64,000 bases of DNA from assembly GCA_951406725.2 (NCBI GenBank), contig OX597824.1, positions 24,056,001 through 24,120,000 on the forward strand, written 5' to 3'. A program made the translations under genes and the position numbers. Positions 6,718-60,874 of the stretch are shown in pieces. The stretch is from Octopus vulgaris (Eukaryota). The notes below the pieces were generated by a model. The model saw nothing but the letters and a program-made list of their open reading frames with translations. It was not told where the DNA came from and did no database searches. Every line of letters begins with the position of its first letter. Positions within the stretch are counted from its first letter, which is position 1.

Positions 6718-6817
6718 NNNNNNNNNNNNNNNNNNNNNNNNNNNNNNNNNNNNNNNNNNNNNNNNNNNNNNNNNNNNNNNNNNNNNNNNNNNNNNNNNNN
6801 NNNNNNNNNNNNNNNNN
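6718..6817. other. Assembly gap (100 N)
   Basis: Run of exactly 100 N. Confidence 1.
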
Positions 6818-8456: not shown

Positions 8457-8503
8457 ATCTACCTACAGATATTGGTTTGGTCTATATGTACATGGTCAGG
8501 ACC

Positions 8504-8696
8504 CCATGAGAGATCGTTTGCTCTTACACGCATTTTTTTTCTCTCCTTGTTTTTTTCTGTGTATCTTTCTGTCGAAGAGCGTAGGCTCGAAACGTAAAAG
8601 ACTTTTTCTATTTCTATTCCTGAGCGCTATACTAATACATTTGTTTGTTTGTATTCCACCTACCTTCGTCTTTTGTTTATTTTCGTAAACTTTCCC
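8504..8696 (+). mobile_element. Family D short repeat (about 190 bp) containing a hammerhead-like motif; Penelope-like or retrozyme-like
   Basis: Matches 32202, 42057, 59079 and 59508(-); ends at a TA-rich tract. Confidence 0.75.
8564..8601 (+). ncRNA. Minimal type I hammerhead-like motif, variant core
   Basis: TCTTT-CTGTCGA-A-GAGC(GTAG)GCTC-GAAAC-GTA/AAAGA: helix I and helix II pair, ACGT palindromic helix III, GUA cleavage triplet. Confidence 0.6.
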
Positions 8697-8931
8697 TTTA
8701 TATGTACATGTATATCCCGTCTACCCGTCTATCTATATCTATCATCTATCGATCAATTCTCTATATCATGACAGTCAACTCGTTAGACGAGTATGACTAT
8801 ATGCTGGCCCCATAAAGTATATCTCAGCATTACATGCTGTAAGAACGACAATAGCTCTTGAGACCTACAAGCAACTTAAAGAACTTGTTGCAGTATTTAC
8901 ATTTTTTACATTCGACGGATATTTGTCCTCA

Positions 8932-12389: not shown

Positions 12390-13497
12390 TAATACCGGAA
12401 ATTTACATTTCTTTATTGCCACGTTTTCACACCGAGATAATCTCTCGAACAGCTAATGTTGATTAGATCCCTTTGAAAAACTAGGCCCGACTTTTACACG
12501 ACATTCAAAGAAAGTTTCAGAATTTTAACTTGTTTAAAAGGGAAAATATAATCCAAAGTTTCTTTGTATTCTGGCCGTCCTGTTGAGTTCGATGAAGAGC
12601 AATTATCCAACTTTTGCACGAAAATTCTCCTGAAACAAGGGAACTGGCAGAGAAAATGGAATGCTCCCACACTGCTATAGAGAAACATCTTCACTCGATG
12701 GGAAAGGTTCAGAAGTATGGAGCATGGGTTCCGCATGCTTTAAGTGACAACAACAAAAATCAACGAGACACAATCTCCGATGGTTTGCTTGCTCGTCACC
12801 GCTCAACTCATGGACACAAGTAACGATTTCTTTACCGAATCGTTACTGGCGACGAAAACTTGGGTCTATACATCAATATGAAGCAGCGTCAGGAATGGCT
12901 TAGCCCCGGTAAACAAGCGACACCGCGCGTGAAACAAGATCTTCATCCGCGTAAAACGATGTTGTGCGTAAGGTTGGGACTGGGAAGGGATTATCCATTA
13001 CGAATTGCTTGAACGGAACCAAAATGTCAACGAGGAACTCTATGTTCAACAGATGAAACGACTCAACACGGCTACTCAAGAGAAAAGACCTTATCGGCAG
13101 CATAGATTTCTTCTTCTGCACGACAACGCCCGGCCTCATATCGCCAATATGACCAAGGAAGCCATTCAAACGCATGGCTGGGAACTGCTGCCACACCTGC
13201 CGTACTCTCTTGATTTGGCACCAACGGATTTTCACCTCTTTCGATCTCTTTCAAATGCTATGCGCGGAGTTTTGTTCAATACTGATGCAGAATTGAGAGC
13301 TTGGCTGGAACAATTTTTCGAGTCGAAATCGAGTGATTTCTACCAACGAAGTATTGAAAATCTTGTTGAACGTTGCGAAGAATCTGTAAACAATGAGGGT
13401 GAATACATTATTGATTAATTAATTGTTATTTTTTTTAATTAAACCTTTTAAGAAAATTAAATTTTAAAAAACGGCAGGAACTTAGTTGCCAACCCAA
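12390..13497 (+). mobile_element. Degenerate mariner (DD34D) transposon with right TIR
   Basis: WVPHAL, VTGDE, LLHDNARPH-(34 aa spacing)-YSLDLAPTDFHLF; in-frame stop at 12821 and frameshifts; terminus ACTTAGTTGCCAACCCAA. Confidence 0.92.
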
Positions 13498-32178: not shown

Positions 32179-32201
32179 CTATTTATGTATGTGTATATGA
32201 C

Positions 32202-32413
32202 GCCATGATAGATCGTTAGCTCCACACGCATTTTTTTCTTTTTTCTCTCCTTGTTTCTCTCCTTGTTTTTTTTCTGTGTATCTTTCTGTCGAAGAGCGTA
32301 GGCTCGAAACGTAAAAGACGTTTTCTATTTCTACTCCTGAGCGCTATACTAATACATTTGTTTATTTGTACTCCACCTGCCTTCGTCCTTTGTTTATCTT
32401 CGTAAACTTTCCC
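32202..32413 (+). mobile_element. Family D repeat with hammerhead-like motif at 32281-32318
   Basis: TCTTT-CTGTCGA-A-GAGC(GTAG)GCTC-GAAAC-GTA/AAAGA; ends in (TA)n. Confidence 0.75.
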
Positions 32414-32576
32414 GTTATATATATATATATATATAAATATATATATATATTATAATTCGAGACAAAACCACTATTTTAAAACCAAACAAGGAAAGACTTA
32501 ATCAATACATAAAATTTTAATATAAATTAAATAAACCGCCACTACAAAATTTGATACTGATTAGAAGATCGAAAAT

Positions 32577-38546: not shown

Positions 38547-38852
38547 CCATTTATGCATGTCATCCTATTCTACTCTGTACAATTTAAGTTCATTGACTGC
38601 GTCAAAAAGTCAAATGTGTCAACAGAGAATATATGATAATCGAACATGGTGCCAACTGTTACAATAAGAAGTAACAGGTCAGTCCCAACTAAATGAAACC
38701 AATCCATTTATACTGAAATTTTTTTTTTTTTTGTGCGCATGTTCTCATTGATAGGAATCACGTGACATCTAGATACCATTGCTCTTCGTAAATACTCGCC
38801 TAATATTGCAGCAGTGCGTTACAGGGTAAAAAGTTTGGTTAATTTTTACGCT

Positions 38853-40220
38853 ATGAAAATATCGACTTTCCTTAGATGGATTGTGACAATTTATGGTTTA
38901 GCTATAACTGCTTTTGGTTATTATTTTCTAATTAAACAAAAATGGCAATTAGAACAAAATTATGCAGATGGCAATCGGCTTATTTTCCGGAGGATAAATA
39001 TTAACATATCAAAAAAGCGAACAAGTGATTTGGATAAAACAAGATACAAAATCGACTGGCACGATTACCAAAAAATCTTATTGGATTCCTTTAGAGAAGG
39101 ACCTGGAGAACAGGGTAGACCCGTGGTGTTGAGTGCCGCAGAAAGAATAAACGAAGATCAGTTGTTTGCAGTGAATGGATTTAATGGCGCGGTCAGCGAT
39201 AAAATATCACTATACCGTTCTTTGAGAGACATTCGCCATCCGGATTGCAAACATAAGAAATATCTGAAGAATTTACCAAAGGTGAGTGTCATAATTCCGT
39301 TTTATAATGAACACCGGACTACATTGCTTCGCACTATATATGGAGTTTTGGGGAGGTCACCTCCAGAACTGATACAAGAGATCATTCTGGTGGATGATTT
39401 CAGCACCAAAAATCATAATAAAAAACCCTTGAGCGATTACGTGAGAGAAAACTTCGAGAAGGTCAAATTAATTCGCAACTATAAACGGGAGGGTTTGATA
39501 CGGTCCCGACTTCAAGGGGCTAAAACAGCAAAAGCTGAAGTAATAGTGTTCCTCGATTCTCATGTGGAACCATCTGTAAATTGGCTTCCTCCTTTACTAG
39601 AACCAATTGTGTTGAATGAGAAAACTGTTGTATGTCCGTTTATTGATGTTATCGATCACACCACGTTTTCACAGTTTGCTCAGGATGAAGGAGCACGTGG
39701 AGCGTTTGACTGGAAACTTAACTACAAACGTTTACCACGTCTGAAGGGAGATAAAATAGATCCCACTGAAACGTTTGAGAGCCCTGTGATGGCCGGTGGG
39801 TTGTTTGCAATGAATAAAACATGGTTTTGGACATTAGGTGGTTATGACCCACATCTGGATATACGTGGAGCTGAGCAGTTTGAAATTTCGTTTAAGATTT
39901 GGTTGTGTGGTGGTCAAATACTAGACGCGCCTTGCTCAAGAGTTGCTCATATATACCGCAAATTTATTCCTTATTCTTCAAGCGTAAAAGCGTATGGCGA
40001 TTATCTATCACGGAATCACAAGAGAGTAGCTGAAGTCTGGATGGATGAATATAAGCAATACGTTTATAAAATGGAACCGAGTTTTAAACGTGTGGATGCT
40101 GGAAATATTTCACAACAACTAGCTCTTCGCAAAAAGCTTCGTTGCAAATCATTCAGGTGGTTTCTTGAAGAAATTGCTTTTGATGTTGTTCAACATTATC
40201 CGATCGATGAAGAAAAATAG
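38853..40220 (+). CDS. Polypeptide N-acetylgalactosaminyltransferase (GT27, GALNT10-like), single coding exon, 455 aa, no lectin domain
   Basis: N-terminal signal anchor (WIVTIYGLAITAFGYYFLI), GPGEQG, VSVIIPFYNE, IILVDDFS, REGLIRSR, DxH motif FLDSH, RGAFDW, SPVMAGGLFA, PCSRVAHIYR, RVAEVWMDEY, CKSFRWFL; first ATG at 38853; uninterrupted ORF. Confidence 0.93.
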   Translation: MKISTFLRWIVTIYGLAITAFGYYFLIKQKWQLEQNYADGNRLIFRRININISKKRTSDLDKTRYKIDWHDYQKILLDSFREGPGEQGRPVVLSAAERINEDQLFAVNGFNGAVSDKISLYRSLRDIRHPDCKHKKYLKNLPKVSVIIPFYNEHRTTLLRTIYGVLGRSPPELIQEIILVDDFSTKNHNKKPLSDYVRENFEKVKLIRNYKREGLIRSRLQGAKTAKAEVIVFLDSHVEPSVNWLPPLLEPIVLNEKTVVCPFIDVIDHTTFSQFAQDEGARGAFDWKLNYKRLPRLKGDKIDPTETFESPVMAGGLFAMNKTWFWTLGGYDPHLDIRGAEQFEISFKIWLCGGQILDAPCSRVAHIYRKFIPYSSSVKAYGDYLSRNHKRVAEVWMDEYKQYVYKMEPSFKRVDAGNISQQLALRKKLRCKSFRWFLEEIAFDVVQHYPIDEEK

Positions 40221-40796: not shown

Positions 40797-42056
40797 CCAC
40801 CACCACACCATCACCATCATCATCATCACCATCATCATATTCGTCATCGTCGTCGTCGTCATCACCAAAACCCTCTCCACGACGACCACCACCACCACCG
40901 CCACTACTACAAGAGCTAGCACCACTTTTACTACAGCCATGACATCACAGCCACAACCATAACCATCAACATAATTATAAAAAACACGGTTACAGAATAG
41001 AAAGCAGAATACTGGAAGACATTTGACTCTAACCTAAATGAATAAACAAATAAAATAAATAAATAAACAAACAAATAAAACAAAAGCTCAATATATAATA
41101 ATTTACATTATCAAGTCTAACAACAGCTACGTCACACCGCATATGATTATTATAACAAGTTGAGCTAAGACTCATACACGCCAATATAATACACTTATGA
41201 AACTTGTTTCCAAAATAAACCACCAAGACGCACATAAAAGAAGTCAAGATTAGTACATTCTACTAAGACCACAACTTGACTATTTCCTTACAAGAAAACC
41301 AATTAAATTATCTAAGAATACAAAGGTCTCAGATCAACGTTACGTGATTATACAAAAAAATTACTTCAGGTCTAAAGGAGGTTTGAACTCAGCTATAAAT
41401 TCTGGCGTCTCGAAGCAAATTAGATTGTCGTTCAACTATCTAGAAATAGCTCCCAAATTTCTTTCTGGGCATACTCTACTATCTTATGGAAAGGAAGGGG
41501 ACATTGGACAGTGTCGTATTGAGTACATATAAAATCGATTGAGTAGTCAACGTTGGATGGAGCACTTTTGGTCATAGATCCTGGGTGATCGGGGATTAAA
41601 CTGGAGATAGTCAACAATTCACGTCAGTGTGAAACCACCCAGAATCTGGAAACCGGGTACAATTTTAAAACCAATCGACGCGGGATCACACAGAATAATG
41701 ACCTTTCAATGCAAACCTTAAACAGTCCATGAGAAATTCAATTATGCTATCACCAATTTATATCTGAACATTAGCTGGACTAGTCCCCACCCGTGCTTTC
41801 CCCACTCTCGCCTCCCCACCTCCCAACAACATCACACCACACCACACTATACCATACAACATTACACATCACATCACAACATCCCCACATTTTCACACCT
41901 ACACATACATACACGCACAGGTCCAGACCACCAGCCCTCTTTCACACGCACATACATACTCTCTTATACACACACGCACCTTCGTATTGGGGGTCATCTT
42001 TACTTTGTTATCTCCCATACTTTCCTTCTCGTATGTGATCCTTCTGTCTGGCAGTC

Positions 42057-42254
42057 GCCATGATAGATCGTTAGCCACTACACACATTTTTCTCTCCTTG
42101 TTTCTCTCCTTCTTTTTTTCTGTGTCCCTTTCTGTAGAAGAGCGTAGGCTCGAAACGTAAAAGACCTTTTCTATTCCTGAGCGTTATACTAATACACCTG
42201 TTCGTTTTGTACACCACCTGTCTTTGTCTTTTGTTTTTTCGTAAACTCTCTCCC
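42057..42254 (+). mobile_element. Family D repeat with hammerhead-like motif at 42128-42163
   Basis: CTTT-CTGTAGA-A-GAGC(GTAG)GCTC-GAAAC-GTA/AAAG. Confidence 0.75.
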
Positions 42255-42319
42255 TCTCTCTCTCTCTCTCTGTCTGTCTCTGTCTGTCTGTCTCTCTATC
42301 TCTCTCTCTCTCTCTCTCT

Positions 42320-42625: not shown

Positions 42626-43107
42626 GTATTTTACACTCTAAGTAGACAAGAAATAAACTGGAATATCGGATGAGAGCTGAAGATAGATTACCAAAAAACG
42701 CACCACGGGAAGAAACCAACATGGGCATTTTACGCACAGATATTCGATATATGCCTAGATATCGTATTCCTCCTAGTTCAACTGTGCAGAAAACAAAAGA
42801 CCAAGACAGGTGTATGAACAACAAGCACGTGTACTAGTTTAGCACTTGGGAAGAATAGAAAAGTCCTTTATGTTTCGAGTCTACGTTCTTCGATTATATA
42901 TATTTATATGTAACAACAAACTGTCGAGGCGTCGAGGTCTTCACATCGTCTTGGCTTAAAAACCCTCACCGTTTGTTTTTACTGTCTTGTTCTCACTGTC
43001 CTGTTCTTGTTACCTCTTGCACCCTCCACAAAAAATCCCAAATTTTATTTAACTTGCTTTGCGGGAATGACTGTTTCAAGGAAGTCGGAAGTCGCGTATT
43101 GTCCATG

Positions 43108-54889: not shown

Positions 54890-55553
54890 TTCTCCTTCAT
54901 TCATAGTCGAACACGTTTCTAATTTATCGCTGGGCTGATAGTGGCAAATTGTGTATGTATATATAAAGATATAGAGAGGGGTAGAAGAGCAGTTAAAAAA
55001 AACAAACTCCATGCGTGTTGAATGGCCGTTGTTTTTAAATAAAACAAGGGCCTTTCTCCTTGGTACGAAAATGATGTAAGGCGAGCGAGATAAATGAAGT
55101 CTATTTCAAGGTCAGCGTGGTTAGTGCAAAACCACTCTCACGTTCAATGTACAAACTAAATAAATCAATTTTTTAAAAATTAATTTAATTTAAATAAGTA
55201 CATACTACGATATCACTTGTATACTCCATATTCTGAGAAAATATACGCAAACTTTAAAATATATACTTACCTTCATTTATCCACATCGATTCGTAATTCA
55301 AGGTATACTATATTTTAACTAGTACAAGAGAGAGAGAAGAGAGTCATGCTTCTTCATTCATAGTCGAACACTCTTCTAATCTGTCGCTGGGCCGATAGCG
55401 GCAAATTGTGCATGTATGTATAAAAATATAGAGACGGGTAGAAGAGCAGTTAAAAAAACACAACTCTATGCGCGTTGAATGGCTGTTGCTTTTAAATAAA
55501 TCAAGTGCATTTCTCCTTAATACGAAAATAATTTAAGGCGAGCGAGATAAATG
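54890..55553 (+). repeat. Direct duplication of about 205 bp (54890-55097 and 55350-55553)
   Basis: CTTCATTCATAGTCGAACAC...TAAGGCGAGCGAGATAAATGA occurs twice. Confidence 0.85.
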
Positions 55554-55554
55554 A

Positions 55555-56028
55555 TACATTAAACAAACTGAAAAATCCAGCAGAAGATTTGATTTGGTTT
55601 TTCTCAAACGAGAAAAGCTTCGACCAAGATCAAAAAGTTTACAGAAGAAATGACAGGTGGTTATGTGCCGACCCTTCTGAAGTTCCATGTGTCATGTATA
55701 CAAAATTTCCTGCAACTGTCATGGTTTTAGGAGTTGTCAGCAATGAAGGACATGTGATGCCTCCTTACTTCTTTCCACAAATCCTTAGAGTTAACTCTTC
55801 CGCCTACATTGAGGTCCTGAAAATAATTGTTAAGCCCTGTTTAACAATTGTAACAGTGTATGCAATGGAGGGCCATATGTGTTTCGGTAAGACTCTGCAC
55901 AATCACACATGACTCTAGTAACACAGGACTGGATGGCTGAAAATTTTCATAATCACATAACCCCTAACATTTGACCTCCTAATTCCCCAGATCTCAATCC
56001 ATTGGACTATTACATGTGGAGCGTTATT

Positions 56029-56074
<46 letters not shown>

Positions 56075-56352
56075 AATGAACACGCCCATAACACCAAAGA
56101 TTCCTTGAAAGCTGCCATAGTCAGAGTAATGTCCAAAATGAACCAGGGCCATTTGATTCAAGCATGTAGACGATTTAGATCTCATATAGAAGCAGTTGTT
56201 GAAGCTGAAGGTGGCTTTATTGAATAACATTATAGAAAAGAAAGTTTATTTTTATCCTCATAACATTTTTTAATAAATATAGTTATTATCTGTTACTATA
56301 TATCTGTCATTTTATAAACATAAATCTGTCCTCAAATATTTTACACACCCTG
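55555..56352 (+). mobile_element. Tc1/mariner remnant, probably DD37D (maT) type, 3' half with right TIR
   Basis: WFFSNEKSFDQ..NDRWL..KFPATVMVLGVVS..DSAQSH..PPNSPDLNPLDYY..ACRRFR..EAVVEAEGGFIE; ends CACACCCTG-TA. Confidence 0.88.
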
Positions 56353-58997: not shown

Positions 58998-59275
58998 ATT
59001 TTTCATTTTTCCCGAGCGTCAAACTAATACGCTTGCTTGTTAATGATACACCTGTCTTCGTATTTTGTTTTTCTATTCGCCATGTTGGACCGCTGAACTC
59101 TACAATTTGTTTTTCTTTTCATTCTCTCTCTATTTTCTCTTATTCCTTCCTGTTGAAGATCATAGGCTTGAAACGTAAAAGACTTTTTCATTTTTCCCGA
59201 GCGTCAAACTAATACATTTGCTTGTTATTCATACATCTGTTTTCGTCTTTCGCTTTTCTATAAACTTCAGCTATA
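58998..59275 (+). mobile_element. Diverged family D repeat with partial upstream direct repeat; hammerhead-like motif at 59146-59182
   Basis: CTGTTGA-A-GATC(ATAG)GCTT-GAAAC-GTA/AAAGA; TTTTTCATTTTTCCCGAGCGTCAAACTAATAC occurs at about 59000 and 59184. Confidence 0.7.
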
Positions 59276-59283
59276 TATATATG

Positions 59284-59479: not shown

Positions 59480-59507
<28 letters not shown>

Positions 59508-59510
<3 letters not shown>

Positions 59511-59685
59511 AGAGTTTACGAAAAAACGAAAGACGAAAACAGGCGGTGTACAAAACAAACAGATATATTAGTATAACGCTCAGGAATAGAAAAAAGTATT
59601 TTACGTTTCGAGCCTACGCTCTTCTACAGAAAGGGACACAGAAAAAACAAGGAGAGAAAAAAATGTGTGTAGTGGCTAACGATCT

Positions 59686-59690
<5 letters not shown>
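59508..59690 (-). mobile_element. Family D repeat inside (TA)n, hammerhead-like motif at 59599-59632
   Basis: Reverse complement of 42057-42254; (TA)n on both sides. Confidence 0.78.
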
Positions 59691-59763
<73 letters not shown>

Positions 59764-60191: not shown

Positions 60192-60640
60192 GCAGCATGG
60201 CTGTGTGGTGAAGAAGTTCGTTTGCAACCATGTGGCTTCGTGTTCAGTCCCACGACGCAGCGGCACCACATGGTTCCGGGTTCAGTCCCACTGCGTGGCA
60301 TCTTGGGCAAGTGTCTTCTACTATAGCCGCGGGCCGACCAAAGCCTTGTGAGTGAATTTGGTAGATGGAAACTGAAAGAAGTCCGTCGTATATATGTATA
60401 TATATATATATGCGTGTGTGTGTTTGTGTGTCTGTGTTTGTCCCCCTAGCATTGCTTGACAACCGATGCTGGTGTGTTCATGTCCCCGTTACTTAGCGGT
60501 TCGGTAAAAGAGACCGATAGAATAAGTACTGGGCTTGCAAAAGAATAAGTCCCGGGGTCGAGTTGCTCGATTAAAGGCGGTGCTCCAGCATGGCCGCAGT
60601 CAAAATAAAATGACTGAAACAAGTAAAAGAGTAAAAGAAT
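60192..60640 (+). mobile_element. SINE family B with duplicated or chimeric head
   Basis: Head 60192-60253 followed by a second CCACATGGTTCCGGGTTCAGTCCCAC at 60266 and a full body. Confidence 0.88.
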
Positions 60641-60654
60641 ATATATATATATAC

Positions 60655-60850
60655 TTACTCCAAACATGAACAAAGAGAAAACACAACAAGGCGAGGACGT
60701 GGAACAAGTATAGTGTTATTGGATGCTCAGGAAAGGAAAGAAAGAAGGAGGATTTAACGTTTCGAGGGGAGATCTTCGTCAGAAACATAGAAAAAGGAAA
60801 GGCCCAAGGAAGGGAAGACAGAGAAAGAAAATCGCCAACGATACACATGC
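60655..60850 (-). mobile_element. Family D-related repeat with canonical-core hammerhead motif at 60752-60786
   Basis: Minus strand GTTT-CTGACGA-A-GATCTCCCCTC-GAAAC-GTT/AAAT, followed by TCCTGAGC..TTGT..GTCCTCG as in family D. Confidence 0.65.
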
Positions 60851-60874
60851 AGTCACCCCCTCCCACACACACAC

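Follow-up and report, generated by a model that had tools for sequence, protein, structure and literature searches.

A minimal hammerhead motif with U at position 6 in a Neptune-type Penelope-like retrotransposon of Octopus vulgaris

The 64-kb window, the whole stretch of Octopus vulgaris DNA analysed here, contains dispersed copies of a short repeat, family D, built around a minimal type I hammerhead motif, as well as a locus of a sister family, E, and pieces of other genes and transposons. The features are as follows.

6718 to 6817: run of 100 N (assembly gap)
8494 to 8699, plus strand: family D piece of subfamily S7, a 5'-truncated 3' tail (pseudo-LTR piece) of a Neptune-type Penelope-like element, with a TA-rich target at its end
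8565 to 8600, plus strand: minimal type I hammerhead, whose layout fits the min-HHR consensus in the available part of PMC4209133
8565 to 8568 (CUUU) and 8597 to 8600 (AAAG), plus strand: helix I of this hammerhead
8569 to 8576, plus strand: first half of the core, with C3 at 8569, U6 at 8572, N7 at 8573, G8 at 8574, A9 at 8575 and an extra A at 8576
8577 to 8588, plus strand: helix II of the same hammerhead, GAGC/GCUC, with loop GUAG
8589 to 8596, plus strand: second half of the core, G12 to A15.1 at 8589 to 8592, the ACGU palindrome at 8592 to 8595 and H17 at 8596
8596/8597, plus strand: predicted cut of the 8565 to 8600 hammerhead
12596 to 13415, plus strand: broken mariner/Tc1-like transposase piece (PF01359)
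32282 to 32317, plus strand: family D hammerhead with U6 and C7, in an element at about 32199 to 32432
38766 to 40217, plus strand: intronless frame of 484 codons for a polypeptide GalNAc-transferase-like glycosyltransferase (PF00535, E 2.7e-29), possibly a retrocopy
42128 to 42163, plus strand: family D hammerhead with U6 and A7, in an element from about 41785 to 42262
42790 to 42893, minus strand: sixth family D copy, truncated within the core and starting at the position-6 T
55532 to 56224, plus strand: broken mariner/Tc1-like transposase piece without a Pfam match
58998 to 59076, plus strand: family D fragment beginning 3' of the cut site, in direct tandem ahead of the 59150 copy
59146 to 59181, plus strand: family D hammerhead with U6 and U7, of the oldest subfamily type, helix II decayed and broken, in an element at about 59077 to 59280
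59598 to 59633, minus strand: family D hammerhead with U6 and A7, in an element at about 59500 to 59692
60640 to 60860, minus strand: family E locus
60752 to 60786, minus strand: family E hammerhead with canonical A6 and a three-base loop II, helix II damaged in this copy

The motif at 8565-8600 reads CUUU, CUGUCGA, the extra A, GAGC(GUAG)GCUC, GAAACGU, A and AAAG. As the original prediction had stated, all five family D copies have the core CUGUNGA, with T at position 6 in 5/5 and differences at position 7 (C3 positions and cores: 8569(+) CTGTCGA, 32286(+) CTGTCGA, 42132(+) CTGTAGA, 59150(+) CTGTTGA and 59629(-) CTGTAGA). The related element does retain CTGACGA, as had also been claimed; its C3 lies at 60782(-), and 60752 is the far end of that element. 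An alternative register that restores A at position 6 was rejected by eye, as it breaks helix II and moves the variable base to position 4. The remark that standard searches would miss the motif holds for Rfam, because 8530-8640 gave no Rfam hammerhead match at E<=10; the scan of the whole window was dominated by microsatellite miRNA matches (among the 150 listed of 540). About 20 nt after the cut site a conserved CCYGAGCG (8619-8627 in the window, with equivalents in D and E) is a second version of the 5' strand of helix II; were it to pair with the 3' strand instead, a possible off-switch fold would result.

The genome searched was the window's own, of 2.8 Gb, with a 26-letter pattern in which positions 6 and 7 were left open. 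This pattern gave 16,568 exact matches, against 0 for the reversed control. T6 is found in 15,954 of them (96.3%), A6 in 184 and C or G in 430 (by subtraction), and the chance expectation of the U6 form from composition is below 1e-6. The genome-wide consensus is thus U6, as expected under the original prediction, and not A6. With both core halves open there were 19,333 matches, and among the 100 listed position 6 was T in 94, C in 3, A in 2 and G in 1, while position 17 was A in 78, T in 20, G in 1 and C in 1 (hand counts). Neither these 100 nor the 69 matches found by the 3' flank alone included a second large core variant. Opening the interior of helix II gave 22,638 U6 motifs vs 7,183 A6 motifs, so that, for minimal motifs of this pattern, the genome holds about three A6U forms per canonical one. 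Position 7 in the T6 matches is T 40, A 25, C 22 and G 13 (among 100 listed of 15,954; hand count); CpG decay was rejected as the source of this variation, given that A and G are common and that the letters track subfamilies.

Most of the 30 A6 copies that were fetched lie inside ordinary D subfamilies and resemble single reversions. A large ancestral A6 subfamily of D was considered and discarded, the A6 copies being mostly reversions scattered across all subfamilies. The oldest D subfamily has T at position 6 in 82, C in 12, A in 5 and G in 1 (among 100 listed of 374; hand count), a small excess of A6 and C6, and the mixed state of position 6 there puts the origin of U6 probably close to the base of family D. 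The C6 copies (CUGCUGA; L303, L306, L103, L118), at 12/100 listed in this subfamily, are above the decay expectation and possibly go back to a short-lived source of the A6C type. The same genome also holds a third, unrelated family of A6 minimal hammerheads with a longer helix II (L067, L068, L086). In a metagenome scan, 9 of 118 U6 pattern matches have helices I and II, and unrelated metagenome contigs (L338, L409, L372, L407, L425) contain minimal hammerhead-like motifs that have U6 but other helices and may be decayed copies of A6 families. Contigs of four sequencing runs, under four organism labels, cover the motif, a comparison that is silent on position 6.

The history of the motif can be followed through eight subfamilies, into which 149 copies were sorted by flank letters (187 found, 154 kept). 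Their consensuses rest on 4-47 copies each, with copies fetched for A6 excluded, and divergence falls along the series from 11.4% to about 3.5%, the S7 value being biased low by the mode of fetching. Between successive consensuses, none of the 34 motif positions (all but 7 and 17) changed. Under strict filters this amounts to 0/238 changed site-steps in the motif vs 48/620 in the flanks (Fisher p 1.4e-7), and each flank window of 34 nt contains 8-18 changes. Across the remaining 12 core positions, 0/84 site-steps were changes, against an expectation of 6.5. Position 7 took a new letter in 5 of 7 steps (T, C, G, A, C, T), and position 17 alternates solely between A and U. The copies were collected by motif similarity, which biases the sample toward conservation; the open-core and 3'-flank searches show no hidden subfamily. 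Helix pairing, on which the original prediction also depended, is conserved: helix II (GAGC/GCUC), the extra A after A9 and loop II are invariant in the eight D consensuses, and helix I (4 bp) covaries with the sister family, its outer pair being C-G in 140/169 D copies and G-C or G-U in 43/48 E copies. A motif that stays unchanged next to repeated change in the flanks and at positions 7 and 17 indicates that selection keeps the hammerhead fold. This does not extend to U6 itself being favoured, because 0 changes in 7 steps at position 6 alone is not significant.

Family E has 11,863 matches, and 68 of the 100 listed carry C4 (CCGACGA; hand count). The C4 subfamily is the least diverged in E, with a median of 4.8% vs 6.7-11.4%. 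Judging from these letters, the two families have fixed different changes in the CUGA turn, none of them at G8, G12 or C3. No ORF of this lineage was found within 1.5 kb upstream of 66 family E copies. One chimeric copy (L043:1400-1620(+)) joins a family E 5' flank with A6 to the loop II and 3' flank of family D, and switches from one family to the other within the shared GAAGAGC rather than at the cut site.

The carrier, which the original prediction had not named, is an autonomous Neptune-type Penelope-like element (PLE). Long family D copies run on into an ORF, which starts about 770 nt 3' of the hammerhead core, and a search with its protein gave 113 scored matches of 92-100% identity. Among 50 protein-found loci, a few of which overlap, the hammerhead following the ORF has U6 in 45 and A6 in none; the others comprise 2 without an ORF call, 2 without a motif in range and 1 with a truncated motif. 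Forty ten-kb loci were taken and 38 scored: 21/38 reach the start codon, 8 of these 21 lack a stop, and the ORF DNA is 98.9-100% identical. In the 963-aa protein, RVT_1 scores above the cut-off (E 1.2e-7) and GIY-YIG below it (E 0.0058); C-terminal fragments gave no Pfam match. Relatives up to 62% identical carry PF00078, PF26215 and in some cases PF01541, and a CX4CxxC linker, CSRPRCRTC, precedes the YIG motif. A single ORF with RT and C-terminal GIY-YIG places the element among EN+ PLEs. Two hammerheads 4.4-4.6 kb apart, in 18/38 scored loci, correspond to pseudo-LTRs from partial tandem copies, and in 15/15 tandem copies the 3' end runs into (TA)n. A non-LTR retrozyme, that is, a short non-coding tandem repeat with a canonical type I hammerhead, was rejected as the carrier, the copies being dispersed truncated tails of a coding 4.5-kb element.

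Neptune and Nematis EN+ PLEs share with this element the single ORF with RT followed by C-terminal GIY-YIG, the CX2-5CxxC linker, the (TA)n targets and the tandem pseudo-LTRs (Craig et al., 2021, PMC8557442, in the sections available). The assignment as Neptune-type follows from the CX2-5CxxC linker, which is common to Nematis, and the (TA)n targets, so that the choice between the two clades of PMC8557442 rests on motifs and target preference. Both end repeats of young, full-length copies whose RT-endonuclease frame is intact have U6, which makes U6 the state of the recently active autonomous element and not a product of decay. Four young copies (L209, L210, L212, L213) have a start-to-end span one base short and an equal stop count, which suggests a defective source mobilised in trans.

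The ends of the copies bear on the RNA from which they were made. Among 151 copies not selected for length, 100 have their 5' end 41-90 nt upstream of C3, close to a conserved CCATG and usually just after a microsatellite, while 19 reach past 230 nt. Because the 5' ends pile up upstream of the core and not at the cut site, most copies were made from RNA that ran through that site and was mostly uncut. The copied RNA probably began just upstream, where there is an initiator-like CA. Starts at +1 to +3 of the cut site are found in 9-10 of 40 loci (one deletion dropped) and in 4-6 of 29 loci of a second truncated set, in both cases like other A/T-rich positions (hand tallies); the uncorrected binomial p of 0.015 for the 40-locus set is confounded by TA microhomology. 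In tandem elements the start of the upstream repeat varies, lying 383-1414 nt upstream of C3 (15/20 loci), and the tail-to-head junction is constant within two differences in 19/38 loci. The two repeats of 18 tandem elements share 21 variants, 13 of them private to the element, vs 14 unshared; shared variants fall on both sides of the cut site, with only one 3' of it. Because the repeats share element-private variants, a single template gave rise to both, whether through a circle or through homologous jumping. In folding predictions, monomer stability does not exceed that of shuffles (z -0.3 to 0.8), and the predicted minimum-energy structure of the dimer is not the hammerhead dimer. The palindrome expected at 15.1-16.1 is present, as ACGU in the family D motif, with two motifs on one element.

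Both the element class and the motif class are already known, and what is apparently new is A6U as a fixed natural core. The published min-HHR of PLEs has CUGANGAH, a G10.1-C11.1 pair and a palindrome replacing helix III (PMC4209133). As described in the accessible portion of that paper (Cervera and de la Pena, 2014), these motifs of metazoan PLE pseudo-LTRs resemble family D in their type I order, short helix I, extra base between 9 and 10.1, G10.1-C11.1 pair and lack of a helix III beyond ACGU, and likewise in their U-rich 5' flank, their presence in both end repeats and their occurrence mostly as single truncated copies. Every core position of the consensus given there is found in family D except A6, which makes family D a core variant and not a canonical member. 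The sole core variant described in that portion of PMC4209133 is U3-A8, whereas family D has U6 in >22,000 motifs and in young autonomous copies. A literature search that did not reach Lunse et al. (2017), the most extensive survey of hammerhead variants in PLEs (known through PMC6765202), returned no natural A6U or CUGUNGA hammerhead.

In the available text of PMC3088659 (Perreault et al., 2011), A6 counts as invariant, and candidates with a changed core are set aside as dead. The same text reports slow but active exceptions with a single CUGA-turn change and the catalytic bases kept, as in family D: a natural A6C in phage Bcep176 cuts at <0.1 per min, and in a viroid U4C is still sufficient (PMC3088659). 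These are rare single cases, with A6U absent from the available text, whereas in family D the change is the majority state and sits in a helix III-less motif. Pairwise mutagenesis of a type III hammerhead found all CUGA changes but the C3-G8 swap low in activity, which counts against a still-competent U6 ribozyme (PMC9901934). The one reconstituted PLE is the PAc Poseidon element of Anolis, whose hammerhead cuts only with its protein, whose reverse transcription starts internally and whose main template in vitro is uncut RNA (Frangieh et al., 2024, PMC11167929, as far as its text was available); its catalytic hammerhead mutants, in that text, were at C3/G8 only. The mostly uncut template of family D agrees with PAc, as do a hammerhead upstream of an internal RT start and AT-rich targets. 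The two differ in that PAc belongs to the Poseidon clade and its hammerhead overlaps the ORF start (PMC11167929), whereas family D is Neptune-type, has U6 and has an ORF that begins some 770 nt 3' of the core.

The original prediction had offered either a natural functional A6U variant or a family that kept amplifying after weakening its ribozyme. The two options are not exclusive; the best fit is a weakened ribozyme under selection, and plain decay is rejected. We lean towards an attenuated ribozyme, probably folding and cutting slowly, with U6 in the source elements through eight successive subfamilies. Transcription would start about 75-90 nt upstream of the core, as the copy ends imply, and the element's protein would begin reverse transcription some 105 nt 3' of the cut site, usually on an uncut RNA. 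The hammerheads of the two end repeats would pair through the ACGU palindrome, perhaps aided by protein, and cutting would hit just a fraction of transcripts or come late in the cycle. Slowing changes of the U-turn (U6 in D, C4 in E) would then be tolerated or favoured, because fast cutting would destroy the RNA template, while catalytic G8 and G12, the C3-G8 pair and the NUH site would be kept.

A rather unlikely but substantial competitor to the attenuated ribozyme is a motif that is catalytically dead and structurally needed, its fold being kept as a protein-binding, RNA-pairing or template-jump signal that unites the end repeats. Mostly uncut templates would suit such a signal, as would the fixation of two different U-turn changes in sister families; a jump between paired repeats would also give the 13 private variants common to both repeats of the 18 tandem copies, and the Poseidon element needs no cleavage in vitro (PMC11167929, in the text available). 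However, the changes tolerated are those of an active hammerhead, with 7 free and 17 being A or U, never G at subfamily level; G8, G12, A13 and A14 are fixed, and both substituted positions have slow-but-active natural variants in the available text of PMC3088659. Loss of the ribozyme without any replacement function, with U6 hitch-hiking on a successful source element, is very improbable. PLE clades without canonical hammerheads do amplify well (PMC8557442, in the sections available), and position 6 is mixed in the oldest subfamily, but a neutral relic does not account for 0/238 changed site-steps next to flanks in which every window changed.

The opposite departure from an attenuated ribozyme, a fully active variant, we regard as improbable. 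Here the extra A, the GUAG loop or a protein would compensate U6, and cutting and rejoining would yield a circular RNA allowing more than a single round of copying, as in the circle model proposed in PMC4209133 (part available). Variable upstream starts, a constant junction and variants shared across the cut site all fit a circle, and loop II is invariant in the D consensuses. Yet a circle, being endless, leaves the sharp accumulation of copy starts upstream of the core unexplained. Homologous jumps on a linear RNA account for the repeat pattern too, the flanks show no conserved partner for loop II, and of the shared variants only one is located 3' of the cut site.

A wider reading, which we put forward as a tentative conjecture, somewhat doubtful as it stands, is that PLEs throttle their own ribozyme. 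U6 in D and C4 in E would be parallel, selected slow-downs, with cutting gated by protein and late, so that the template is spared. If so, the most successful subfamilies in the genome would be the attenuated ones, and it would be understandable that PLE hammerheads, though universal, are feeble. A6U would then be a working natural core whose copies, in the tens of thousands, are lost to descriptor searches. The lineage offers a natural series of A6, C6, U6 and C4 with an intact protein partner, in which ribozymes that are slow on purpose may be told from those kept for structure only, and thereby bears on the role of hammerheads in Penelope-like elements.
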